A stretch of 64,000 nt of DNA, from positions 32,001 to 96,000 of the forward strand of contig JBBRPR010000019.1 in assembly GCA_038227875.1 (NCBI GenBank), written 5' to 3'. The notes under the pieces were generated by a model. That model worked only from the letters and a program-made list of their open reading frames with translations. It ran no database searches and was not told the origin of the DNA. This document shows positions 5,236-24,771 of the stretch, in pieces. The number at the start of each line of letters is the position of its first letter. The stretch's first letter is position 1. Source of the stretch: Planctomycetota bacterium. Its GTDB lineage: Bacteria > Planctomycetota > SZUA-567 > H5-PLA8. Both the position numbers and the translations under genes were made by a program.

Positions 5236-5805
5236 ATGGCAGCCAACGAATGGTCGGAAAAAACCCGCATGATCGTCACCATCGCCATTGGCGTGGTGGC
5301 CAACATTGCCCTGGGTACCGTGCTGTACATGGCCTATAGCGACTGGAAGGTCAAAGACGCCGAACTAACCAAGAAGAAGAAGGAAATCGAATCGCTGAAG
5401 CAGGTGGTCGACAAGAAGCCGGAAAAGGAAACGCAGTTGAAAGGTCTCCAGGCCGATTTCGAACACAAGAAGGAACAACTTCCCGACGCAGCCGCGATGG
5501 AAAAGCTGATCGACGACTTGGCGCCCATTGCTGACCACAATTCCTGCAAACGAAAAACATGGCGCAGGACGGTGGCGACCGATGCGGGTGCCGGCAACAA
5601 TCTGGTGAAGTCGGTCTTTAGCACAACCTGGGAGGCGGATTTCTTCGGTTGGTGCAAGATGATCAATGAAATCGAAGAACGGTTTCCACGATTCATCGGC
5701 TTTGAGAACATGCGCCTCACGCCCAAGAATTCTGGCATGGTGGCCACTGGAGCGGTGCACGACCTTTCGGTTGATATTGTCTCGTACCAGTACGTCCGCC
5801 AATAG
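5236..5805 (+). CDS. pilO: Type IV pilus assembly protein PilO
   Basis: TM helix, coiled coil, QLP...LIDDL and a ferredoxin-like C-terminus; operon position; SD AAGGAG. Confidence 0.78.
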   Translation: MAANEWSEKTRMIVTIAIGVVANIALGTVLYMAYSDWKVKDAELTKKKKEIESLKQVVDKKPEKETQLKGLQADFEHKKEQLPDAAAMEKLIDDLAPIADHNSCKRKTWRRTVATDAGAGNNLVKSVFSTTWEADFFGWCKMINEIEERFPRFIGFENMRLTPKNSGMVATGAVHDLSVDIVSYQYVRQ

Positions 5806-6775: not shown

Positions 6776-8767
6776 TTGGTTGAGGAAATGTCGTTTCCTC
6801 GAGCGTCCATCCGTTGCACGGGCTCGCTGCAGATCAGCGGACGTGTGCGGTACGCTCACGCCAAATTAGTGTCGCGCTTTATGCTCTGTGGAGTTCTGGC
6901 CTGTGCGGCCGGGGCGCTCCAGGCGGGCGACGATTCAGGTCCGGTTCTACGCCGCGTAGAATCGATCACCAGCAGCGAAGATATCCAAGCCGGCACGCAA
7001 GCGCCCGGCGCGCTGATCACGCTTGAAGTCAATGAGCGTCCCCTCAAGCAGGTGTTGGACTATCTCTCCACCGTCAGCGGAAAGAACATCCGCGTCGTCA
7101 AAGAGAAGGACAACAAGCTGCTGATCACGTTCAAGCTTGAGAACGTGACCTACCGCGCGATTCTCGATTTCATTGCCCGCAAATATGGCATGGTCATCGA
7201 TGACACGCAGTTGCGCACCGGCAACATCATTTTCGTGGATACGCCTGAAAAGGTCTCCATGGTGTTCCAGCGCGCCGACATCCGCGACGTCATCAACACC
7301 ATCGCGATCCAGTCGAACGCCAACATCGTGATCGGACCGGAAGTAACCGGCGAAGTCTCGATGCGCCTGGAGAACGTGCCTTGGAACGACGCGCTGAACA
7401 TCGTCGTCAAGACGTTGGACTTCGTGGCGGTGCCGGAAGTCAACAACACCATCCGCATCACCAGCCCGGCGAAAATCGCACAGCAGCTGGACATCCGCAT
7501 CTTCCGACTGGCGTACATTTCGCCGGAAGGTTCGAAGTACACCGCGGTGCTCAACAGCGAATTTGCCAAGCGTGAAGAATCCAAGGATACCGCCGCCGCC
7601 GGCCAGTCGTTGATCGACGTGCTGACGAAGGTCAAGGGATCCCAGGGTACGATCTCGTTTGAAAAACGCTCCAACGCCCTGGTTGTCCGCGACACGTCCA
7701 CCAGCCTCGACCAGATGCAGTTGATCATCGACAAGCTGGACGTTCCGCCCAAGCAGGTGCACGTGGCCGTCAAGCTCGTCGAACTCTCCGATTCCGATTC
7801 GGAAGCGATCGGCGTGGACTGGGGCAACGGACTGCAGCTCCAGGTCAATCCGATCAGCGGCTTCTCGACTGCCTTCCCATTTGACGTCTCGAACGGGCTG
7901 AGCAACTCGCTGCTGGGCAAGTTGGCGGTCGGTCTTGCGCCCACCCGCGTCCCCGCTGGAAACACGCACGTCGGATCTGACATCTTCGGATTGGGATCCT
8001 CAGTCAACCGCGGCGGCGATGGACTGCCCACCTCCGTCTCCCCCTTGGGTCTGGGTTCGGTGAGCACGGCCGGCACCAATGCTCTCCTGCAGTTGATTCG
8101 CACCAAGACCAGCGGCCGGGTCATCCAGGCACCGCAGATCATTGCGCTGGATAACGAAGAAGCCACGATTCAGGTCGGCGAACTGGTCCGCTACGCGGAA
8201 ACGTTCGTGGCGAACACTGAAGGTGGTGGAAACGTTTCCGGTTTCCGCGAAGCTTCCGGCTCGCCCATCAAGCTGGGAACGCAGCTCCTGATCATCCCGC
8301 ACGTGACCGGACCTGAAAACAATGTGCTGATGACGGTGGTGCCGAAGGTTGAAAGCTTCAGCACTTCCCGCAGCGGACTCAACGGCGCTCCGGCCGGATT
8401 CCAGCGCTTCAACGGCGCGGGCATCTCGTTGGACTTGCCGCAAACCGCCCAGCGCATCGTGGTGACCAAGATGATGCTGCGCAACGGCGAAACGGGCGTG
8501 ATCGGCGGACTGCGCGCCGAAACCGACGCGACGTCGGAAACGAAAGTTCCGATCTTCGGCGAAATTCCGGTGCTCGGCCGGTTGTTCAAGCACCGCGGCG
8601 CCTCGTCGTCCAGCACCAACCTGCTGGTCTTCGTGACACCGACGATTGTTGACTTCCACGAAAGTGATACGTTCAAGAAGGAACTCGACCGCCTGAAGCA
8701 GGACTTCTCCCGGCCTTTCACGCCGCTGGGCGAAGAAGAAGAAACCACGGCCTCGGCGGCCAAGTAA
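6776..8767 (+). CDS. pilQ: Type IV pilus secretin PilQ / GspD family (start codon uncertain)
   Basis: N-domains (ADIRDVI...VPWNDAL), LDVPPKQV, APQIIALDNEEATIQVG, GETGVIGGL, KVPIFGEIPVLGRLFK, LLVFVTPTIV. Confidence 0.9.
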   Translation: MVEEMSFPRASIRCTGSLQISGRVRYAHAKLVSRFMLCGVLACAAGALQAGDDSGPVLRRVESITSSEDIQAGTQAPGALITLEVNERPLKQVLDYLSTVSGKNIRVVKEKDNKLLITFKLENVTYRAILDFIARKYGMVIDDTQLRTGNIIFVDTPEKVSMVFQRADIRDVINTIAIQSNANIVIGPEVTGEVSMRLENVPWNDALNIVVKTLDFVAVPEVNNTIRITSPAKIAQQLDIRIFRLAYISPEGSKYTAVLNSEFAKREESKDTAAAGQSLIDVLTKVKGSQGTISFEKRSNALVVRDTSTSLDQMQLIIDKLDVPPKQVHVAVKLVELSDSDSEAIGVDWGNGLQLQVNPISGFSTAFPFDVSNGLSNSLLGKLAVGLAPTRVPAGNTHVGSDIFGLGSSVNRGGDGLPTSVSPLGLGSVSTAGTNALLQLIRTKTSGRVIQAPQIIALDNEEATIQVGELVRYAETFVANTEGGGNVSGFREASGSPIKLGTQLLIIPHVTGPENNVLMTVVPKVESFSTSRSGLNGAPAGFQRFNGAGISLDLPQTAQRIVVTKMMLRNGETGVIGGLRAETDATSETKVPIFGEIPVLGRLFKHRGASSSSTNLLVFVTPTIVDFHESDTFKKELDRLKQDFSRPFTPLGEEEETTASAAK

Positions 8768-9138: not shown

Positions 9139-9870
9139 ATGATTCAGCAAAAGGTAGAAATCCGTTTCGAGAAGGGTGAGGCGATCCGCTTCATCTCGCA
9201 CCATGACCTCATGCGCGCGTTGATGCGTGCAGTGCGCCGGGCGAAGTTGCCGGTGCGGCTGACCGAGGGATTCAACCCCCGGCCGCGCATCGTCTTTCCC
9301 GTGGCGCTCGAGGCTGGCGTCGCTTCCCTCGACGAAGCAGCGGAAATCGAATTGACTCAATGTCTAGCCACACAGGAAGTTTTCAGTCGTCTTTCCTCCG
9401 TCTTACCCCCGGGCATCCAGCTGAAGGCAGTGAAGGATCTTCCGCCGCGTCGGGCGGGACAGACTCCGATTCGGATTCAGTATCTTCTTCATCTGGTGGA
9501 AGCGGGGATTCAACTCCAAACGCTCCAACTGGAAAACCTGCTAAAAGCTCCAGCGCTGCCCTTCGAGCGACCAAGGGAAAAGCATCTGCAAAAAGTGGAT
9601 CTAAGGCCGGCGCTGCTCGCGCTAAGCCTAAATCCACAGGGAAATCTGCTGGTCGAAGTGAAGCCAAGCCCAAGCGGGTCAGTAAGACCGCTCGAAGTGC
9701 TAAGCCTGCTGCTGAACGTGCCGCTGGACGACGTGAAGCGAGTGCGCGTGACGAAGCTGCTCATGGAACTGCAGACGCCACCGGAACTGACGCCGGAACA
9801 GCAAACCGAACGCGAACTGCTGCTGCAGAGGGAACTCGACCGGGATCAGGAGCAGGAAGCGGAAGCGTAA
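9139..9870 (+). CDS. Radical SAM-linked protein (TIGR03936/DUF2344-like)
   Basis: RFEKG..RFISHHDLMR..RRAKLP..TEGFNPRPRI..AL..G..S..E, then LPPGI, VDLRP and GSVRP.EVL. Sits in the usual position upstream of rne/rng. Confidence 0.85.
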   Translation: MIQQKVEIRFEKGEAIRFISHHDLMRALMRAVRRAKLPVRLTEGFNPRPRIVFPVALEAGVASLDEAAEIELTQCLATQEVFSRLSSVLPPGIQLKAVKDLPPRRAGQTPIRIQYLLHLVEAGIQLQTLQLENLLKAPALPFERPREKHLQKVDLRPALLALSLNPQGNLLVEVKPSPSGSVRPLEVLSLLLNVPLDDVKRVRVTKLLMELQTPPELTPEQQTERELLLQRELDRDQEQEAEA

Positions 9871-12800
9871 CAACGCACGCTGCTCCGACTCAGGAATCCG
9901 CGCCGCCTGCTCCAGCACCGGTTCAACACACGCCGCCGGCCCCAGCGTCCCATTCGACGCCTTCATTCAACGAATCGGCCGCCGATGCACAGCCGGCTCC
10001 CATGCGCCCTAAGTCCGGCGACGTCGACGAATCGGCCGCCGATGCCGCCGCCGCCGCGCGCGCAGCACAGATTGTCGCCAGCATGATCGGCGTACCTCCC
10101 GGCGCGGCCGGTCCGCAGCAATTCCGCCCCGGAAGCCAACCTCGACCGGGCCAGGGTGGACCTGGACAGGGTCAACACCGGGGCCCCGGACAGGGCCAAG
10201 GCCAGATGGATGGCGGACGGCGTAAGCGTCGGCGGCGCGGACGCGGCGGTGACCGCTTCGCTCAGCCCGGCGGTTTGCCCGGCCAGCCCGGCCAACCTCG
10301 ACAGCCCGGAGTGCCTCAGGGCAACCGGCCTCCGCACCTGCCCCGCCCTCCGCACGTTTCGCCGCCGGTTTCCGGTGCCGTTACGCCTGACACGGGCACG
10401 CAGATATCCACACCCGTCGATCCTGCCGTCGTCATTACGCCACCGGCCGCTGTGATCATGGATACACAGAACGTTCACGCCGTCGATCTGAATGCGACGT
10501 CGTCCGTCGCGCCTGTATCCGCGCCGGCGCAGACGGGTCAGCCTTCGCAACAACTTCCGCGCCATCAGCAACCGCGGCGTGATCGGGATCCGCGCGACCG
10601 TGATCGGGATCGCGATCGCGACAGTGGCCAGGTTTCATTGCCCCCCGTGAAAAAAGTGGTGTTAATGAACGCCACCGATCCCGGCGAAATCCGCGTCGCG
10701 ATTCTTGAGAACGGTGAGCTCGCAGAAATTTTCATGGAACGCAAGAGCCGCGGGCAGCAGGCGGGCAACATTTATAAGGGCCGCGTGGTCAACGTGGAAC
10801 CGTCGCTTCAGGCGGCATTCGTCGATCTGGGCACGGAACGCAACGGCTTCTTGCACGCATCGGACTGCATTCCGCCCGACGGCGGCTACGGCGACATCCT
10901 GACAAAATTCAAGCCCGGCGCGGGCCGTCAACCGTTGCCGCCGCAGGCGCAGGTCCAGCAGCCGCAGCAGCAGCACCGAGGTCCGCGCGACCGGAACGAT
11001 CGCAACGCCGCGCGCCGTGAACAGTATCAGCAGCGCCGCGATGCGCAGCTGCCGGGTGGTGTGCCGCAATCCGCGCCCACCTCTCCAGCAATTTCGTCAC
11101 TGCCCTCGGCTCCGCCTGCCGATGCAGTCGCAGCCACAGCGCCAGTTTCTGTTCCGGTCACACCCGCTCCGGACGTCGACCCGACGGTGATTCGGATTGC
11201 TCGCCCCGGCGTTCCGTTGCCTCCCGCGCCAGCTCCGGTTGCACCGGCCGCGCCAGTTGATTCAACGTCAGCCGCAACGCCGACGGACGCGCCCGCTTCC
11301 GCGCAGGACGCCGCCCCCTCAAATCCTTCCACCCAGTCGTACGACTCGGATGAAGATGAAGACGAAGACGATCTCGAAGGCGGAGAAGGTGAAGGCGACG
11401 ACGACGAGGGCGATTCTGAACAGGGTGAAGGCGGCAACGCTGCGCCCATGATCGCCGGCCAAGGCGCGCCGGGAACTGGAATCGCGACAGGTCAGCCGCA
11501 GCACTCCGGCCAGCGCCCGCCGTTTGCCGCCAACAGTCAAAATGGTGGACGCCGCCGGCGCCGACGCCGTGGTGGACGCGGACGTTCCGGACGTGGCCGC
11601 CCGCCGGGTCCCGCGCCGATGATGGCCCCAAATCATGGCAATCCGGAAGGCTCCGGAAACGCCGACGCACCGCAAGGTGGTGACGTTCATCCCGTCACGC
11701 CTCCGGTTTCGAATCCGATTGTTGAAAAGCCGCCCGAAACTACGGCGCCCGCTCCCGTCATTGTTCCAGATGCTGCGCCCGAAGCCGTGCCCGTCAGCAG
11801 CAGCAACGAACCGGTCACGAGCGCGCCTGTGGCCACCGAAAGCAATTCCCCTTCACAGCCGGCGGAAGTGCCCGCCTCGGAACCGGCCGCACCTGAAGTT
11901 GTCGACGAAGAGTCCGAAACGGAAATCGATACCGATAACGTTCCGCCTGTGTCGAATGGTACCGGCGAAAGCGAAAGCGAATCCGAGAACGGCAATGAGT
12001 GGCATGAGCATCCCGTGAGCGAGGAAGCGCCGCCGACGGAGATTATCGTCCCGGAAAGCAAGCCCGCTCAGTCTCCGCGCGAAGCCGCGCCGATTCCCGC
12101 GCCGGGACAGCCCGCGCCGGTTCAGCAGCGCCGTCCGGACGGTGGCGGACGCAGCGGTCGCGACCGTGGCGATCGTCGCTACACGATTCAGGAAATGCTC
12201 CGCGAAGGCCAGGAAGTGCTCATTCAGGTCGCCAAGGAAGGCATTGGTCAGAAGGGCCCGGCGCTCACGACGTACCTGAGCATGCCCGGCCGTTACCTGG
12301 TATTGATGCCGGCCGTGCAGCGTCTGGGCGTTTCCAAGCGCATCGAGAACGAAGAGCAGCGCCGCGCCCTCAAGGACGCGCTCAACCAGCTCAACCCGCC
12401 CGACGACATGGGCGTGATCGTGCGCACCGCCGGCACGGGACGTTCGAAGGACGAACTGCAGCGCGACATGGATTACCTCGTCCGCGTCTGGGATACGTTG
12501 AAGAAGAAGGCGAAAGTTGCCCGCGCTCCCGCACTGATCTATCAGGAAGGCGACGTGGTGACGCGCGTCTTCCGCGACGTGATCACCGACGACGTGGCCG
12601 AGATCATCATCGACGATCCGGTGGTCGCTGACCGCGCCCGCGAATTCCTGCGCGAAAACGCGCCGGGAACGGAAGGCAAGGTCAAGCTCCACGCCGACGC
12701 CGAACCGCTGTTCCACAAGCTGGGCGTCGAACAGCAGCTCCAGCGCCTGTTCAACCGCAAGGTCAATCTGCGCAGCGGCGGCTCGATCGTAATCGAGCAG

Positions 12801-13445
12801 ACCGAAGCGTTGATCGCCATCGACGTGAACACCGGCCGCTTCCGCGAAAAGCGCAGCCAGGACGACACCATCCTGGCGACGAATCTCGAAGCCGCCCGCG
12901 AAATCGCGCGTCAGTTGCGGTTGCGGGACATCGGCGGCCTGGTGATGATCGACTTCATCGACATGGAACCGCACGAACACCGGCGCCGCGTCGAACGGGA
13001 ATTGAAGGCGCATCTGCAGCGCGACAAGGCCCGCATCAACGTGCTGCCGATCAGTTCGCTGGGCGTCGTGGAAATGACGCGCCAGCGCATCCGGCACAGC
13101 CTGCGCAAGACGCTCTTCGACCGCTGCCCGCATTGTTCAGGCTCGGGCCACGTGAAATCGGCCGAATCGCTGGGGCTGGAAATGCTCCGCGAAATCAAGG
13201 GGCAGTTGCGGGACGCAACGGTGAAGCGGGTGCTGGTGAAGGTGAATCCCGCGGTTGCCTTTGACATTTTGAACCAGTTCAGGAAAGATCTGGCACGTTT
13301 GGAAGAAACTCGCGGGATCGCCATTGAAGTCCGGGGGGACGGCACTGTGCCGTTAAGCCAGATCCAGGTTTCGACCGCCAAAGAGGGCGGCGAGTGGGTG
13401 CTCAAGAAAATAAGTGAGGTTGATGACTATGTACGCAATTCTTAA
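9360..13445 (+). CDS. rne: Ribonuclease E/G family, 1361 aa, with a long disordered N-terminus and an ~435-aa insertion in the S1 domain (start uncertain: 9360 or 10002)
   Basis: EIRVAILENG, GNIYKGRVVNVEPSLQAAFVD, QEVLIQVAKE...KGPALTT..S.PGRYLV, IDVNTG, RLRDIGGL..IDFIDM, CPHC Zn-link. Confidence 0.93.
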   Translation: MSSHTGSFQSSFLRLTPGHPAEGSEGSSAASGGTDSDSDSVSSSSGGSGDSTPNAPTGKPAKSSSAALRATKGKASAKSGSKAGAARAKPKSTGKSAGRSEAKPKRVSKTARSAKPAAERAAGRREASARDEAAHGTADATGTDAGTANRTRTAAAEGTRPGSGAGSGSVTTHAAPTQESAPPAPAPVQHTPPAPASHSTPSFNESAADAQPAPMRPKSGDVDESAADAAAAARAAQIVASMIGVPPGAAGPQQFRPGSQPRPGQGGPGQGQHRGPGQGQGQMDGGRRKRRRRGRGGDRFAQPGGLPGQPGQPRQPGVPQGNRPPHLPRPPHVSPPVSGAVTPDTGTQISTPVDPAVVITPPAAVIMDTQNVHAVDLNATSSVAPVSAPAQTGQPSQQLPRHQQPRRDRDPRDRDRDRDRDSGQVSLPPVKKVVLMNATDPGEIRVAILENGELAEIFMERKSRGQQAGNIYKGRVVNVEPSLQAAFVDLGTERNGFLHASDCIPPDGGYGDILTKFKPGAGRQPLPPQAQVQQPQQQHRGPRDRNDRNAARREQYQQRRDAQLPGGVPQSAPTSPAISSLPSAPPADAVAATAPVSVPVTPAPDVDPTVIRIARPGVPLPPAPAPVAPAAPVDSTSAATPTDAPASAQDAAPSNPSTQSYDSDEDEDEDDLEGGEGEGDDDEGDSEQGEGGNAAPMIAGQGAPGTGIATGQPQHSGQRPPFAANSQNGGRRRRRRRGGRGRSGRGRPPGPAPMMAPNHGNPEGSGNADAPQGGDVHPVTPPVSNPIVEKPPETTAPAPVIVPDAAPEAVPVSSSNEPVTSAPVATESNSPSQPAEVPASEPAAPEVVDEESETEIDTDNVPPVSNGTGESESESENGNEWHEHPVSEEAPPTEIIVPESKPAQSPREAAPIPAPGQPAPVQQRRPDGGGRSGRDRGDRRYTIQEMLREGQEVLIQVAKEGIGQKGPALTTYLSMPGRYLVLMPAVQRLGVSKRIENEEQRRALKDALNQLNPPDDMGVIVRTAGTGRSKDELQRDMDYLVRVWDTLKKKAKVARAPALIYQEGDVVTRVFRDVITDDVAEIIIDDPVVADRAREFLRENAPGTEGKVKLHADAEPLFHKLGVEQQLQRLFNRKVNLRSGGSIVIEQTEALIAIDVNTGRFREKRSQDDTILATNLEAAREIARQLRLRDIGGLVMIDFIDMEPHEHRRRVERELKAHLQRDKARINVLPISSLGVVEMTRQRIRHSLRKTLFDRCPHCSGSGHVKSAESLGLEMLREIKGQLRDATVKRVLVKVNPAVAFDILNQFRKDLARLEETRGIAIEVRGDGTVPLSQIQVSTAKEGGEWVLKKISEVDDYVRNS

Positions 13446-13985: not shown

Positions 13986-16169
13986 ATGGCAGCACCTGCC
14001 GAAATCATAGTCACCGGTCCAGACGGCAGCGTCGCACGCTTTCCCGTCAAGGAACGCACGGTCATCGGACGGCACCCCGAGTGCGAAATTGTCCTGACCG
14101 ATCCGATGTCCTCGCGCCGCCATCTCATTGTCGAACGTTCCGCCGACGGCTTCACCGCTGAAGACAACAAGTCCGCCAACGGTTCAATCCTCAACGGCGA
14201 ACCGCTCAAGACCAAGGTCACGATCAAAAACGGCGACACGATGCAAATCGGGTCGACGATCATGGTGTTGCGCCTGGATGTCCCCGCCGCGCGCCCCTCA
14301 ACGCGGCAGCCTGCTGGGTACGAACAGAGCCTTTCGATCGTGCGGCTGGAGGAAGAATCGGCGGCCAACGTGCCGTCGTTCGACTTCGCGCAGAAGGCCG
14401 ACGCTTCGATGGTCTCCGAAGAAGAAGCCGCGACGTCCGATCCCGCGGCGCTCAAGCGCGTGACCGAACGCCTCAAGCTGCTGATCGACGTCAGCCAGTC
14501 GATGGGCACCTCGCTGGATCCCCAGAAGCTGCTGAACACCTGTCTTGAAAAATTGTTTGAAGTCTTTCCGCAGGCCGACCGCGGTCTGATCGTGCTGTAT
14601 GGTCCCGACGGCTCGCTGCCGGCCACGCTGGCGCCCGAGAAGGATCAGACGGCGACGCTGGACCGGCGCAAGAGCGCGATGACGCGCGTGAAACTGCGTC
14701 ACGCCCACTCGGCGCTCGACAACGAAATCAAGCTCTCTAAGACGGTGCTCAACCGCATCCGCACGCAACGCCAGTCGGTGCTGGTCTCCGACGCGGCGGC
14801 AGAATCCGGCGGCATGTCGCTGGCGAAATTCGAAATCAAGTCTTTGATGTGCGCCCCACTGCTGATCGGCACCGACGATCTGGGTTTCATCCAGCTGGAA
14901 ACCAAGAGCCGCCAGTCGCCCTTCAATCCGGAAGACCTGGGCGTGATGACCGCCGTCGCCGGACAGGTGGCCGTGGTGATCCGCAATTCCGATTTGGCGC
15001 TGGAAGCTGCCGCGGCCGCCGCGCAGAAGGAAAATTTGTCGCGATTCCTCTCGCCCAATCTCGTCGACCAAGTGCTGAAGGGCGCGCTTTCCGTCGAACT
15101 GGGCGGCACGGAAAAGAAGGGCACGATCTTCTTCTCCGATATCGTCAGCTTCACCAAACTGGCCAGCAAGATGAGCGCGCAGAACGTGGTGACGCTGCTC
15201 AACCGGTATTTCACGGTGATGCAGAACATCATTTTCCGCCGCGGCGGCTCGATCGACAAATGCGCCGGCGACAACATCATGGCGCATTGGGGCGTCGTCG
15301 GCGACATGCCCGACTTCACTGCCAGTGCCGTGACCTCGTCGGTGGAAATGCAGATCGCGCTCTTCCGCTTCAACCGCGACGAAACCCGCAAGGCCGAAAT
15401 TCAGCTCCCGACCGTGCCGCTGGGCCATGGCATTGGCTTGAACACCGGCATCGTCTGCGCCGGAAACATCGGGTCGGACCGCAAGATCGAATTCACCGTG
15501 ATCGGCGACGCGGTCAATCTCTCCGCGCGCATCGAAGCGATGGCCGGCCGTTTCCAGACGTTCATCGGCGAGCCGACGTACATGGAAATTCAAGACCGCC
15601 TGCTGTGCATCCGCATGCCCGATTGTCCGGCGAAGAACGTCGCCAATCTGCTGCCGGTGTACTCGGTGCGCGGCATTGTTCCGCCGCCGCTGGACGGAGA
15701 GAGCGCCGACACAAAGCACGAATTGCTGCTGGCCATGCCCTGCGTGATCAAGGGCGCCGATGGTCTGGCGGTTCCCGGCATGGTGACGCGCATCACGCCG
15801 GCGGCATCCGGTTCGGGCGGCGCGATCGTGATGCAGATTGAAAAGCACATTCCGCCGGGCACGCCCGTGGAATTGGAATGGGACGTCCCCGAAAAGCCGA
15901 CGCTCTCGAAGGTACCCGGCACCGTCGACAAGTGCCCGAAGGATCCTGAGCCGAACAAGGCGCTGACTGAAACGGCGCAGACGCCGGCAGCCACGGCGGC
16001 GAAGCATCATGATCACGTGAAGGGCTTCACCGCGATTCTCGGAGGCCCGATCGCTCCCGGCACGCTGGTAATGAAGACCGACGCGCTGCCTCCGGACGTT
16101 GCCGCAATCAAGGCTGGCGTGCTGATCCCGTCGGACCTGAAATCACACGAAGACATTGTTCGCGCGTAA
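13986..16169 (+). CDS. FHA-GAF-class III adenylate/guanylate cyclase
   Basis: FHA motifs IGRHPEC, SRRH and SANG; GAF motif SLMCAPL..LGFIQL; cyclase motifs FFSDIVSFT, IDKCAGD, GIGLNTG and FTVIGDAVNLSAR. Confidence 0.9.
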   Translation: MAAPAEIIVTGPDGSVARFPVKERTVIGRHPECEIVLTDPMSSRRHLIVERSADGFTAEDNKSANGSILNGEPLKTKVTIKNGDTMQIGSTIMVLRLDVPAARPSTRQPAGYEQSLSIVRLEEESAANVPSFDFAQKADASMVSEEEAATSDPAALKRVTERLKLLIDVSQSMGTSLDPQKLLNTCLEKLFEVFPQADRGLIVLYGPDGSLPATLAPEKDQTATLDRRKSAMTRVKLRHAHSALDNEIKLSKTVLNRIRTQRQSVLVSDAAAESGGMSLAKFEIKSLMCAPLLIGTDDLGFIQLETKSRQSPFNPEDLGVMTAVAGQVAVVIRNSDLALEAAAAAAQKENLSRFLSPNLVDQVLKGALSVELGGTEKKGTIFFSDIVSFTKLASKMSAQNVVTLLNRYFTVMQNIIFRRGGSIDKCAGDNIMAHWGVVGDMPDFTASAVTSSVEMQIALFRFNRDETRKAEIQLPTVPLGHGIGLNTGIVCAGNIGSDRKIEFTVIGDAVNLSARIEAMAGRFQTFIGEPTYMEIQDRLLCIRMPDCPAKNVANLLPVYSVRGIVPPPLDGESADTKHELLLAMPCVIKGADGLAVPGMVTRITPAASGSGGAIVMQIEKHIPPGTPVELEWDVPEKPTLSKVPGTVDKCPKDPEPNKALTETAQTPAATAAKHHDHVKGFTAILGGPIAPGTLVMKTDALPPDVAAIKAGVLIPSDLKSHEDIVRA

Positions 16170-21392: not shown

Positions 21393-22508
21393 TTGAACTC
21401 ATCGTCGCCCTTTGAAGGGTCCATTCTGCTTGTGGCAGAGCCGCTGAATCCGGGCGGAATCGCGGTGTATACGCGCTCCATTTTGGCGGGGTTGCGGCAG
21501 GCCAATATCCGCCACCGCCTGATCACCTCCGTGCGGCCGAGCGAAGGGGCGTTGCTGACCGAAGAGCAGAGCAACATCGACGTGGTGCAAGGCTTGTTCT
21601 GGAGCGTCTGGCGACCGTTCATTTTCCGCAAACTGGTGGCGTGGGCGCGCGAAAATGAGCCGGTGATCATCCACGGGCTCTCGGCGTTGGCGGCGCCGAT
21701 CTGCGCTCAGCTCTCGAAGGCGCTGGGCATTCCGTTTGTCGTCACGGTCCATCATTTTCAGAAACCGGGAGTTTTGCGGCAGGAAGAAGGCTGCCACGCG
21801 TTCATCGCGGTGAGCGAATCGTTACGCGAGAATCTGGTCAACGACGCGCGCATTCCGCGCGAGCTGGTGCGGCTGATCCCCGCCGGCATCAGTGTGCCGA
21901 AGGAACTCGCGGCGCGCCCGGCGGAATACAACCGCGGCGAATCGATTCCGCTGATCAGTTCGTTTGGCAAACTGATTCCGCGCAAGGACTATCCGACTTT
22001 CTTGAAAGCCGCGCGGCTGGTCATCGACCGGCTCGGTCCGCAGAACAGTTTTGTGATCCTGGGAGAAGGCCCCGACGAACCGGCGCTGCGGAAACTCGCG
22101 CGGGAATTGAAAATCGACAAGCAGGTCACCTTCTGCGACACGACCGCCGCCGTCGAACCGATCTTCCGCGACACCGACGTCTATGTGCAGTGTTCCAAGC
22201 AGGAAGGCTTCGGCACGATGGTGCTGCAAGCGATGGCTCACGGCGTGCCTGTCGTCACGACCGCGGCCGGCGGAATATTGTCGCTGGTACGCGACGGCGA
22301 AACGGGATTCATCGTCCCGATCGGCGATCACGAAGCGCTGGCCGGGCGCATCTGCAATCTGCTGACCGACCCGGAACTCGCGGCCCGCATCGGCGATGCC
22401 GCGCGCAAGATGGCCGTCGAGAATTACGACCTCGATGCGATGATGTCCTCCACGCTGTCGCTATACAGCGAAGCGGTGAGCGAGGACGTGAAGATCACGA
22501 AAACGTGA
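21393..22508 (+). CDS. Glycosyltransferase family 4 (GT-B)
   Basis: PGG, IAVSE, GKLIPRK, G.GP, EGFG..VLQAMA.G.PV, DGETG. Confidence 0.85.
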   Translation: MNSSSPFEGSILLVAEPLNPGGIAVYTRSILAGLRQANIRHRLITSVRPSEGALLTEEQSNIDVVQGLFWSVWRPFIFRKLVAWARENEPVIIHGLSALAAPICAQLSKALGIPFVVTVHHFQKPGVLRQEEGCHAFIAVSESLRENLVNDARIPRELVRLIPAGISVPKELAARPAEYNRGESIPLISSFGKLIPRKDYPTFLKAARLVIDRLGPQNSFVILGEGPDEPALRKLARELKIDKQVTFCDTTAAVEPIFRDTDVYVQCSKQEGFGTMVLQAMAHGVPVVTTAAGGILSLVRDGETGFIVPIGDHEALAGRICNLLTDPELAARIGDAARKMAVENYDLDAMMSSTLSLYSEAVSEDVKITKT

Positions 22509-22527
22509 ACTCCAAGAGCACAGCGTC

Positions 22528-23217
22528 ATGGTAAACATACGCCCTGCGCTGATCGCTCTCTGTGCGCTAATCTTAGTCTGCGGCTGGAGCCAGGCGCCGA
22601 ATCTCGCCGCGCAGGCGTACGACCGGCCGCATGCACTCAAAATCCAAGCACCACAAATTATCACATTGGATTGCGAAGAGGCGACTATCGAGGTCGGCGA
22701 GTTGGTGCGGTATGCCGAAACATTTGTCGCCGCGAATGTCCGGGACGGGGCTACACCGCGGATGTACATCTGCCCCAAAGATTGCCAGCACGGCAAAATT
22801 TATCCCAGTGCGGCCGGGGAGAAATGTCCTGTCTGCCATTACCGCTTGTATGAAATTCGCGACGGCCGGATTGAACACAGTAACCACCGGCCGCGGCATG
22901 GCGGTGTCTTCTTCATGGGACAGGATGGCTTTCATCACGTTGAAGGCGTTTTGATTTCCGCTACTGAATTCCGACTCTATGTGTACGACAACTTCACCGA
23001 ACCGCTGAAAGAAACCTGCTCCGCGAGCGCGGAATTCATTCAGAACAAGAATGCGCCGGTGAAAGTGGACCTGAGCCGCTACGCGGACGGGGCATTTCTG
23101 TCCGGCGAGGTTCCAGTGGGATTTCCGATGCCTCTGTCGCTGGCCGTGCGGGTCCGCTTCGGTGAGCAGCGGGAGGGCATGCTCTTCAATTTCACGTTTG
23201 ATCGTTTGACGCGCTGA
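22528..23217 (+). CDS. Exported putative metal-binding protein carrying a PilQ-like 30-aa segment
   Basis: Signal peptide; YICPKDC...KCPVC (heavy-metal-binding-domain-like); HSNHRPRHGG...HHVEG; residues 39-68 match PilQ. Confidence 0.7.
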   Translation: MVNIRPALIALCALILVCGWSQAPNLAAQAYDRPHALKIQAPQIITLDCEEATIEVGELVRYAETFVAANVRDGATPRMYICPKDCQHGKIYPSAAGEKCPVCHYRLYEIRDGRIEHSNHRPRHGGVFFMGQDGFHHVEGVLISATEFRLYVYDNFTEPLKETCSASAEFIQNKNAPVKVDLSRYADGAFLSGEVPVGFPMPLSLAVRVRFGEQREGMLFNFTFDRLTR

Positions 23218-23223
23218 AATCCG

Positions 23224-23249
23224 ACCACATGGCCAATTGGCCATGTGGT
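23224..23249. repeat. 26-bp perfect palindrome between convergent genes (AATT-centred family)
   Basis: ACCACATGGCCAATTGGCCATGTGGT. Confidence 0.85.
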
Positions 23250-23262
23250 TAGAAAGCACCAC

Positions 23263-24771
23263 TTACTTCTTCGGCTTGCCTTTGAACAGGTCCAACCAAT
23301 TGCGTTCCTTGAAGAAAAACGTGTAGCTGCGGCCGTCTTCGAAGGTGGCTTTGGCGTCGCTGGGGATCTGGTTGGCTTCGAGGGCGTAGTTTTTCTCGCC
23401 GCCAGCGGAGCTGGAGAATTTCACCTGGAAGCTCACGGCGCCCGGACAGGTGTAGAACCAGCCTTTGCCGTCAGGAATTTTGCCTTGAGCCCAGCGCGTG
23501 TACGAGCCGTCCCATAATTTCCAGCGGCAGACGATCGAGATATACTGCGAAGACGTCGCCAGCGGATTGTGAAAGGCGACCACGCCCTGCCGCGTCAGCG
23601 CGATGGCGCGCTGCTGGGCGAGAAACTGTTCCTGACGCGCTTTGGCTACTTCACGCTTGGCGCGTTCGATCTCGTACTTGCGCTGCGCTTCTTCACGGGC
23701 GCGGGTGACAGCGGCGTCTTCCTGCTGCTGTTTGGCCTTGATCGCGGCCAGTTCGTCCTGGGCGCGCTCCAGTTCCAATTCATCTTTCAAATCTTCCTGA
23801 GCCTGCGCGATGGCTTCGCGGCGGGCTTTCTCGAGTTCGCGCGCGTTCTCGGCGGCCTTGGCGCGCGCGGCGGTTACGGCGGCGGCGTCTTCTATGGCGG
23901 CGTTGTTGTCCGCGGCGTTGATTTCATCCAGACGCTGCTCGAAGCTCCAGACCTGGTACGCGCCGGTTTGGGAATTCCATTCGAGAATGCGGTCGCCGTC
24001 CATGTAATGGAAGCTGACACCCGGGGCGGCGTGCGGCCATTCGCCTTCTGCCAGCGGCTTGCCGGGGAAGGGATCTTCCGCGCCGCGCTGCGTCATGTCA
24101 TAAGCCCAGATCCGGTAGCGGCCGGAATCTTCCCAATCGAGCACACGGTCGCCGTCGAATTGCATCAGATGGTGGCCGGCCTTGATCGATTTCCACGTGC
24201 CTTCCGCGATGGGCTTGCCGGGAAACGGATCGTCGGCGCCCTTCTTTTCGCGGTCGTAAAACCAGATCCGATAGTGTCCGGTCTCCTCGACCCAATCGAG
24301 GACCGCGTCGCCGCCCATGTAAATCAACGTGTGTCCGGCATTGATCGAGCCCCACTTGCCTTCCACGTCAATTCCGGTGAGCGGGTCGCGATTTCCCGCA
24401 ATGCTGCGATCGTAGGCGAAGATGCGGTAGCTGCCGGTTTCCGGTTCCCAATCGAGAATCCGGTCGCCGCCCATGTATACGAGTTGATGGCCATCGGCGA
24501 TACTTTTCCACGTACCTTCAACCACGGGGCCGCCGGGAAGCGGATCGGCTTTGCCGCTGCGCTCGCGGTCGTAACGCCAGATGCGGTAGTGACCGGACGA
24601 TGGCTCCCAGTCGAGCAGGCGGTTGCCTTCTAAATAGACCAGTTCATGCCCGCTCTTGATGGACTTCCACACGCCACTGCAGACGGGGCCGTTGAAGGGA
24701 CCGTCTGCCGCCACGAGGCTCAGCGAAAAGACAACCGCCAACAGCACCGCGCTTCGCAGAATGGGTTTCAT
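23263..24771 (-). CDS. Secreted protein with five ~52-aa Trp-rich repeats (probable beta-propeller), a coiled coil and a C-terminal beta domain
   Basis: Repeat consensus GxWKSIxxGHxLxYxxGDRxLDWExxxGxYRIWxYDRxxxGxxDPxPG. Confidence 0.75.
   Translation of the reverse strand: MKPILRSAVLLAVVFSLSLVAADGPFNGPVCSGVWKSIKSGHELVYLEGNRLLDWEPSSGHYRIWRYDRERSGKADPLPGGPVVEGTWKSIADGHQLVYMGGDRILDWEPETGSYRIFAYDRSIAGNRDPLTGIDVEGKWGSINAGHTLIYMGGDAVLDWVEETGHYRIWFYDREKKGADDPFPGKPIAEGTWKSIKAGHHLMQFDGDRVLDWEDSGRYRIWAYDMTQRGAEDPFPGKPLAEGEWPHAAPGVSFHYMDGDRILEWNSQTGAYQVWSFEQRLDEINAADNNAAIEDAAAVTAARAKAAENARELEKARREAIAQAQEDLKDELELERAQDELAAIKAKQQQEDAAVTRAREEAQRKYEIERAKREVAKARQEQFLAQQRAIALTRQGVVAFHNPLATSSQYISIVCRWKLWDGSYTRWAQGKIPDGKGWFYTCPGAVSFQVKFSSSAGGEKNYALEANQIPSDAKATFEDGRSYTFFFKERNWLDLFKGKPKK

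Follow-up and report, generated by a model that had tools for sequence, protein, structure and literature searches.

We have analyzed a stretch of 64,000 nucleotides (hereafter the window) from the genome of a Planctomycetota bacterium (assembly GCA_038227875.1, contig JBBRPR010000019.1, positions 32,001 to 96,000). Two of its genes, one coding for a PilQ-type secretin and the other for a 229-residue exported protein (hereafter the host protein), share a segment of 30 residues (the piece) in otherwise dissimilar surroundings (Table 1). An earlier note on this DNA, made from its letters alone, had pointed out the match, and we have followed it up here. The source genome is a 9.3-Mb assembly in 176 contigs with an estimated contamination of 4%. 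The comparisons covered 17 genomes of its family and, for a wider probe scan, 62 genomes of the class; the genome totals of the order- and class-level scans include one genome flagged as unpublished (G019), to which no other statement is tied.

Table 1. Coordinates of the features discussed (window positions, except for the last row)
Feature	Coordinates	Strand	Basis
PilQ-type secretin gene, 663 aa	6776..8767	+	Pfam Secretin 3.1e-36, Secretin_N, N0, STN
Matching stretch in PilQ, residues 450-479; pivot Gly468 codon 8177-8179	8123..8212	+	Translation, alignment
GT4 glycosyltransferase gene	21393..22508	+	Pfam Glycos_transf_1 2.5e-35
Gene of the 229-aa exported host protein	22528..23217	+	Open reading frame list; orthologues P0004, P0005
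Signal-peptide-like N-terminus, residues 1-30	22528..22617	+	Basic residue, hydrophobic run, 'AAQA'; read from sequence
PilQ-derived piece, residues 39-68; pivot-Gly equivalent 22696-22698; derived Cys49 at 22672-22674	22642..22731	+	27/30 to PilQ
HMBD-like four-cysteine motif, residues 79-111, CPKDC...CPVC	22762..22860	+	PF19335 in relatives
His-rich beta-sandwich domain, residues 115-229	22870..23214	+	Alignment, AF2
Gene of the 1139-aa exported protein in G011:C58	L158:2789-6208; piece at L158 3383-3472	-	Homologue comparison

The PilQ gene and the host gene

The secretin has the N0/STN, Secretin_N and Secretin domains of PilQ, and a PilO-like gene lies upstream of it (5236-5805). Its best matches among solved structures were PilQ structures, and it scored 231.8 bits with the TIGR02515 (PilQ) model, under the cut-off of 284.35. 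By its sequence it is to be taken as a divergent member of PilQ. The piece of the host protein aligns to positions 11-40 of the 169 of the Pfam Secretin profile. The pivot Gly of the PilQ motif 'IQVGELV' falls on chain residue 453 of 5wq8_A (Vibrio cholerae GspD; ungapped alignment), and Gly57 of the host protein, Gly468 of PilQ and residue 453 of GspD correspond to each other. According to the structural reports, G453 is the gate hinge of V. cholerae GspD (PMC7545093), and the equivalent pivots are Gly267 of pIV (PMC8563730) and G466 of XcpD (PMC10550240). Each secretin subunit is described there as contributing four inner-barrel strands, the ends of which bend at conserved glycines to make Gate 1, the central gate (PMC7545093, PMC8563730, PMC10550240). 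An AlphaFold2 (AF2) model of the C-terminal part of PilQ, with a mean predicted local distance difference test score (pLDDT) of 48.9, placed strands at residues 455-458, 463-471 and 474-480, then a turn (481-485) after which a strand runs back (486-492); we used it for the strand pattern alone, as agreement with the literature.

From the profile and GspD alignments and the published gate structures, with which this strand pattern agrees, the copied piece consists of a short hairpin of the inner barrel, then the pivot glycine, and lastly the arm that ascends to the tip of the central gate. The earlier note was therefore right in assigning it to the conserved secretin domain. The piece is homologous to the inner-barrel strands, pivot Gly and first gate arm of the Secretin family (PF00263; PilQ, GspD, pIV), and differs from its members in lacking the outer-barrel strands, the second gate, the N domains and the descending arm. 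With only 30 of the 169 Secretin positions present and these parts missing, it cannot form a channel. As a whole, the host protein reached 13.1 bits with the Secretin profile, below the Pfam cut-off of 27.5.

The host protein has the layout given in the earlier note (here a signal-peptide-like N-terminus, the piece, CPxxC/CPxC module and His-rich domain), and all of its elements could be located, with CPKDC at residues 82-86, CPVC at 100-103, HSNHRPRHGG at 117-126 and HHVEG at 136-140. In the AF2 model the signal-like N-terminus contains a helix (residues 6-17); its hydrophobic run is closed by a Cys common to the host orthologues, which may mark a non-canonical lipoprotein signal. The model was computed with 72 sequences and had pLDDT values above 94 for the sandwich, 76-91 for the four-cysteine motif and 44-63 for the PilQ piece, which is thus predicted to be flexible in the host monomer. 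Over the 72 sequences H117, H120, H137 and E139 are invariant, which suggests a putative metal site, and H124 and H136 are nearly invariant. All four Cys of the HMBD-like motif are present in the window protein, and two of them are invariant in 12 sequences. The 28-position PF19335 profile did not match the window protein at E <= 0.1; a paralogue and 13 relatives scored 26-74 bits, and the truncated gene call P0019 gave an E value of 0.054.

We compared the fold of the sandwich by VIA-align, for which scores below 8 are common background according to the note of the tool. DUF4426 (3uc2), CrdA (9ll2), HftA (8t7m), FtrA-P19 (7r4z) and Tp34 (3pjl) gave Z values of 10.2-9.3 over residues ~122-229 (96-103 aligned, root-mean-square deviation 2.5-2.9 A); with an identity of 9-12% the likeness is one of fold only, known from the model. 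A Foldseek search of the host model against PDB found nothing at E <= 0.001. Among 1.84 billion representatives, 392 members of the host family were detected. They share with the HMBD proteins of heavy-metal resistance-nodulation-division (RND) operons (PF19335) a four-cysteine motif followed by a His-rich domain. We read the loci of 16 distant relatives (77 of 134 open reading frames were sent to Pfam): five genes lie inside an RND efflux operon, one further gene has a membrane-fusion gene nearby and ten have no such neighbors. The paralogue in the source genome, which does not have the piece, also adjoins an RND pump. The window protein and its closest relatives differ from the HMBD proteins in a motif below the Pfam threshold and in the PilQ piece, which takes the place where relatives bear other N-terminal domains; besides, the host gene is not in an efflux operon. 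From the sandwich fold, the HMBD relatives and the relatives in RND operons we infer, with good support, that the host is an exported metal-binding protein, as the earlier note had supposed.

Conservation, age and donor of the captured piece

Between the piece and the PilQ stretch, 27 of 30 residues agree and 65 of 90 bases, far more than chance would give; the codons differ for 20 of the 27 residues that are identical. Their flanks are dissimilar and the borders are sharp on both sides. When the 25 base differences were placed at random on the PilQ segment (200,000 trials), the mean was 15.6 amino acid changes and the minimum 8, against the 3 observed. Counting by Nei-Gojobori on the 90-base segments gave a proportion of synonymous differences (pS) of 0.98 and of nonsynonymous ones (pN) of 0.058. 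These values, together with the at most 65 of 90 bases shared with any of 18 PilQ segments of the family, agree with what the earlier note had proposed: this is not a recent DNA copy, and it is the peptide, rather than the DNA, that has been kept. The residue and codon counts, coordinates and translations of the note were reproduced exactly. The pS value exceeds the ~0.75 expected at saturation. The codons of the piece lean to A/T endings and those of the PilQ stretch to G/C endings (GC content at third codon positions, GC3, of 0.57 vs 0.73). This skew could reflect a foreign gene origin or a selection against DNA similarity to pilQ, two cases for which the sample is too small.

The earlier note had also left the junctions to be confirmed by reads. 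A Logan contig (2844 nt; produced by another assembler, probably from the source sample) covers positions 22300-23252 with zero differences, and a second contig, of 151 bases and from a different study, runs from 22572 to 22721 across the 5' junction, so that contigs from two studies support the junctions. Runs X2 and X3 cover parts of the stretch only, and the parts not covered are no evidence of absence. The number of contigs and the estimated contamination of the assembly are what might be said in favor of a chimera or a mis-called frame. The two contigs speak against it, as does the same architecture in orthologues from other sources, and we consider its probability negligible. We conclude that the piece in the host is genuine and was not copied recently at the DNA level.

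Two full-length orthologues, P0004 and P0005, are 59% identical to the window protein by BLASTP over 97-98% of the length (60-62% in the alignment). All three full-length proteins keep the piece, and two 5'-truncated gene calls, P0006 and P0015, begin in the last third of it, which settles in favor of retention the question, put in the earlier note, of whether orthologues keep the segment. The five proteins form one clade (the fusion clade) with a support of 97 in the Shimodaira-Hasegawa-like approximate likelihood ratio test. The tree was a quick IQ-TREE run on 68 rows, 4 of the 72 alignment rows having been removed for fewer than 120 residues in the region. Among the 392 family members, only this cluster at 50% identity has an alignment that extends through the N-terminal part. 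The piece itself is 73-80% identical from one orthologue to another (22-24 of 30 residues). The corresponding values were 70-82% for the four-cysteine motif, 76-93% for the His-rich edge, 52-61% for the rest of the sandwich and 32-41% for signal and linker; true linkers are at 25-63%.

These figures bear on whether the piece could be a neutral relic, a captured scrap with no role beyond that of a linker, carried along by hitch-hiking or chance. The low AF2 confidence, the rarity of the fusion and the position behind the signal peptide and ahead of the folded domains, a place that tolerates linkers, would all be in keeping with this. Not so the pN value next to the pS value, the three changes where 15.6 are expected (none of the 200,000 trials fell below eight), a conservation equal to that of the metal motifs and above that of true linkers, and the second conserved copy in another protein described below. 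A neutral relic is strongly disfavored.

Some positions of the piece have changed. An Asn that is invariant in PilQ is Cys in all the orthologues ('LDCEEAT' vs 'LDNEEAT'), and P0005 has Ala at the position of the pivot Gly, invariant in 15 PilQs of the family. In P0003, the database representative of the cluster of the window protein, Asp is found for Ala at residue 68, next after 'ETFV'. The extent of 30 residues given in the earlier note is exact for the window protein, but the similarity to PilQ runs further in relatives: P0004 has 'GRV' ahead of the piece, and P0015 and P0006 have 'TEG' after it. P0019, which belongs to the same wider group (support 94) without a resolved position, starts with 'VSGFREA', matching the descending gate arm. 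The original capture was probably ~45 residues long, judging from these extensions.

In the more distant relatives found by scanning genome and metagenome contigs (at most 41% identity) the piece was present in none of the 18 N-termini read. Some of their alignments start at query residues 50-58 and were considered as possible remnants of the piece; they were ruled out, the aligned part being a helix 'EMVKLTETL...' that resembles 'ELVRYAETF'. In distant members (loci L024-L026 and L051-L057) this helix, 'EMVKLTETLxKYxPK', precedes the four-cysteine motif, at the place where the fusion clade has 'ELVRYAETFVA' (window 22693-22731). The resemblance may be due to chance or to a microhomology that guided the original junction.

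We have looked for the donor among the secretins of the source genome and of the family. A full Secretin domain is encoded by nine genes of the source genome; the comparison covered seven of the eight other than pilQ, which shared with the piece at most 9 of 30 residues and 42 of 90 bases. The PilQ stretch is found all over the family, with 20-27 of 30 residues identical to the source-genome PilQ in 17 further segments. With the 18 family segments, the own one included, the window piece shares 20-27 of 30 residues and 56-65 of 90 bases, and between PilQ genes of different genera the count is 63-76 of 90 bases. A blastn search with 150 nt around the piece against its own genome returned the self match only. 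Because the piece has 20-27 of 30 residues in common with family PilQs and no more than 9 with the other secretins, the donor was a PilQ of this bacterial family, with none recognizable at the DNA level, and the sequences indicate a capture at least as old as the divergence of genera. Alternatively, the whole host gene may come from a relative with other codon usage, since its GC3 is 0.66 and that of the neighboring genes 0.75-0.79. The earlier note had offered the capture of a foreign secretin fragment as one possibility. A captured fragment it is, but one of the family's own PilQ type, and the piece is old and under selection, not neutral. The DNA-level match to another secretin that would have marked a neutral capture was absent from the 18 PilQ segments, the own genome and the seven other secretins. 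That the piece co-evolves with its own PilQ, where the best match lies, was considered as well and ruled out: PilQs of other genera reach 26 of 30 residues, and the stretch is conserved family-wide.

The piece in other exported proteins

A search with PilQ residues 440-500 against proteins shorter than 364 residues returned nine PilQ fragments with a Secretin match, a 101-residue PilQ-like fragment (P0171) and two further proteins, P0172 and P0173. P0172 (204 residues, metagenomic) has an unrelated helical N-terminal part and ends in 'GRVLTEPQLICLDGEEATIQVGELVRYAETFVASTEG' ('GRVL...FVASTEG') plus an acidic tail. Many weak paralogues of the N-terminal part occur in the source genome, none with the piece, and a search with P0172 in 20 genomes of the order found no fusion like it. 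P0173 (342 residues) is a member of a family of ~350-residue exported proteins resembling small secretins, in which a PilQ-type gate tip has replaced the tip proper to the family. The tip is nearly identical to the PilQ type, and 30 of 68 residues are identical to PilQ 454-521. Two tandem copies of this family are found in the source genome (C10:113971-115796; L141 158-1210 and 1261-2343).

The clearest second case (G011:C58) comes from the genome of a different genus in this family, where an exported protein made of CarboxypepD_reg-type repeats contains 'RVIPPPQLIVLDNEEATIQVGELVRYAETFVA'. Here the piece is an insertion, because three homologues (in G010, G012 and G013) align on both sides of it and lack a net ~32 residues at the piece. 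Compared with the two PilQ genes of G011 itself, this copy is identical at 25 of 30 residues and 65-66 of 90 bases, with a pS of 0.85-0.86; it reads 'AETFVA' where they have 'AESFIA', and keeps the Asn of PilQ, with no Cys at that site. Again in this case the peptide has changed little: 24 random base changes gave a mean of 15.2 amino acid changes, and 5 were observed. Furthermore, a run of 18 residues, EEATIQVGELVRYAETFV, is the same in P0004, P0172, the G011:C58 protein and the source-genome PilQ.

The window piece and the G011:C58 piece have a pS of 0.65 between them and use the same codon at 13 of 24 shared residues. Against PilQs, the same codon is used by the window piece at 3-10 of 20-27 residues and by the G011 piece at 11-15 of 24-26. 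At synonymous sites the two pieces are thus nearer to each other than to the PilQ genes. With ~21 synonymous sites to go by, it hints weakly that the copies outside PilQ may have one origin, the module having then moved between host genes.

The wider scan with a 45-residue PilQ probe over the class genomes found all matches but two in frames of 291-776 residues, and those inspected were PilQ-like. The two exceptions were the host gene of the window and the G011:C58 gene, and in both the match ends where the piece ends. Sequence comparison thus places the same piece, with the same borders, in at least one other unrelated exported protein, and probably in two, as expected of a portable peptide module.

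As a control, sliding 40-residue windows of PilQ were compared with the whole source genome. Within the C-terminal secretin domain a close copy (90%, E 2e-11) was found for the gate piece and for no other part. For the N-terminal domains of PilQ, paralogues of entire domains are encoded on C12 (50-74% identity) and C18 (39-57%). The first of these (G000:C12:140274-141527, +) is a 418-residue exported protein with permuted PilQ-like N domains, one N3-like followed by two N0/STN-like, a unique C-terminal domain and no secretin domain; the second (G000:C18:122127-122771, +) is an exported paralogue of the PilQ N-terminal domains with 215 residues. Besides, a frame of ~2590 residues with an anti-sigma-like N-terminus (G000:C10:116652-124427, +) bears two PilQ-like patches, with 61% identity over 31 residues (E 2e-7) and 65% over 23 residues (E 2e-3). 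Going by these similarities, the lineage has unusually many exported proteins built from PilQ-like parts, which makes an association with PilQ more plausible.

Possible roles of the piece and remaining genes of the window

Reuse of whole domains is commonplace. What is unusual here is a slice of 30 residues from the middle of a beta-barrel domain, near-invariant in several unrelated hosts while its DNA is saturated, and this argues for a function of the slice on its own. The explanation that we favor is as follows. A piece of 32-45 residues of the family's own PilQ was captured long ago into an exported protein and kept by purifying selection, the same module recurring with the same borders in at least one, and probably two, other unrelated exported hosts. 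It copies strands that in PilQ pair with neighboring strands of the barrel and gate, and for this reason it would most likely act by beta-strand pairing. The host would dock onto PilQ or onto intermediates of PilQ assembly, and docking would place it at the pilus channel or modulate assembly or gating. We hold the descriptive part of this explanation (capture, age, selection, junctions and recurrence) with high confidence. The explanation as a whole, mechanism included, is tentative. Docking on PilQ, derived from the strand pairing in PilQ itself, is made more plausible by the recurrence of the same piece in other exported proteins, and we put it forward with reserve, as a possible mechanism.

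Binding by a donated or mimicked beta-strand is known from the donor-strand complementation of chaperone-usher pili. The proposed mode is similar in that an exposed strand or hairpin would complete a sheet of the partner or compete for it. The difference is that there is no homology between the two systems, and that here the strand copies the sequence of its presumed partner, the binding being putative. In full-text searches of open-access papers and bioRxiv we came across no account of other proteins that contain a fragment of a secretin gate. We regard the finding as a case of fragment capture or module shuffling, possibly of molecular mimicry, and not as a member of the secretin family.

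Several observations weigh against the docking explanation. A closed secretin barrel has no free strand edge, so that the host could dock only on an assembly intermediate or where a gate arm is displaced. The pivot Ala of P0005 and the change of Asn to Cys in the orthologues point to constraints different from those of PilQ. The host gene lies 14 kb from pilQ, in no pilus operon and next to a glycosyltransferase gene. The fusion is rare, present in one of the 17 family genomes and in a single cluster of the host family, and non-PilQ copies occur in only two of the 62 class genomes. AF2 makes a helix of residues 56-70, with low confidence, and P0172, P0019, P0006 and P0015 are metagenomic gene calls known as protein only. 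Finally, the abundance of PilQ-like parts described above can also be read as PilQ sequences being a frequent source of building material in this lineage.

Some of these observations would be expected if the module had been re-purposed for something unrelated to PilQ, with a self-pairing hairpin and strand that bring the host into dimers or oligomers, possibly locked by Cys49, or that bind another partner. The fixed Cys and the tolerated pivot Ala are constraints unlike those of PilQ, the functions of the hosts are unrelated to pili, and the host gene belongs to no pilus operon. In secretins, moreover, these strands pair with like strands of adjoining subunits (PMC8563730). On the other hand, the G011 copy has Asn and no Cys, and a disulphide is thus not a general mechanism; the identity of EEATIQVGELVRYAETFV across hosts and PilQ is also easier to understand if a PilQ-like surface matters. 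Such a re-purposing is in our opinion rather unlikely, though second only to docking.

The piece could also be a recognition tag. The factor that reads it would normally encounter this stretch in unassembled PilQ only, and could be a chaperone, a quality-control protease or something like a pilotin; the hosts would then be handled, targeted or degraded in the same way, or act as decoys. PMC8563730 and PMC10550240 describe the stretch as buried between the two barrels and in the gate once assembled, so that it would be exposed only before. In the host model the piece is flexible and exposed, and all the hosts are exported proteins. Nothing in the gene neighborhood suggests such a factor. We know of none for this region of PilQ, and the known pilotins bind the C-terminal S domain. 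We consider a tag of this kind improbable.

Returning to docking on PilQ, a bolder version would make the piece a sequence-defined address tag by which unrelated exported hosts (metal-binding, giant with beta-sandwich repeats, or small and helical) engage the PilQ gate from the periplasm. Hosts tagged in this way could ride at the channel, hold the gate or pass through it. We offer this as a speculation with little probability on its side; if true, the tag would be the first recognizable linear signal for secretin targeting. To our knowledge, the recruitment of proteins to or through secretins is poorly understood. If the function of the piece is the recognition of PilQ, it would provide a handle on this recruitment, and also a peptide of natural origin directed to the secretin gate. 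With any other function, it would still be a clean natural case in which part of a domain has become a portable module.

As to the neighborhood of the host gene, it starts 20 nt after the stop of the GT4 gene and the two are possibly co-transcribed. The sole contig from an RNA run spans 22300-22427 only, inside the GT4 gene, and says nothing on the expression of the host gene. On the other side, 23263-24771 (-) codes for a 502-residue exported protein that matches no Pfam family; it has five repeats of ~45 residues ('WKSI..GH.LVY..GDR.LDWEP..G.YRIW.YDR'), a long charged middle part resembling a coiled coil and a C-terminal domain. Between pilQ and the host gene we found, at 9360-13445 (+), a 1361-residue RNase E/G-like protein, the first ~900 residues of which are of low complexity and rich in Pro, Ala, Ser and Gly (from the translation alone), and, at 13986-16169 (+), a 727-residue protein with FHA, GAF and adenylate/guanylate cyclase domains (Pfam).

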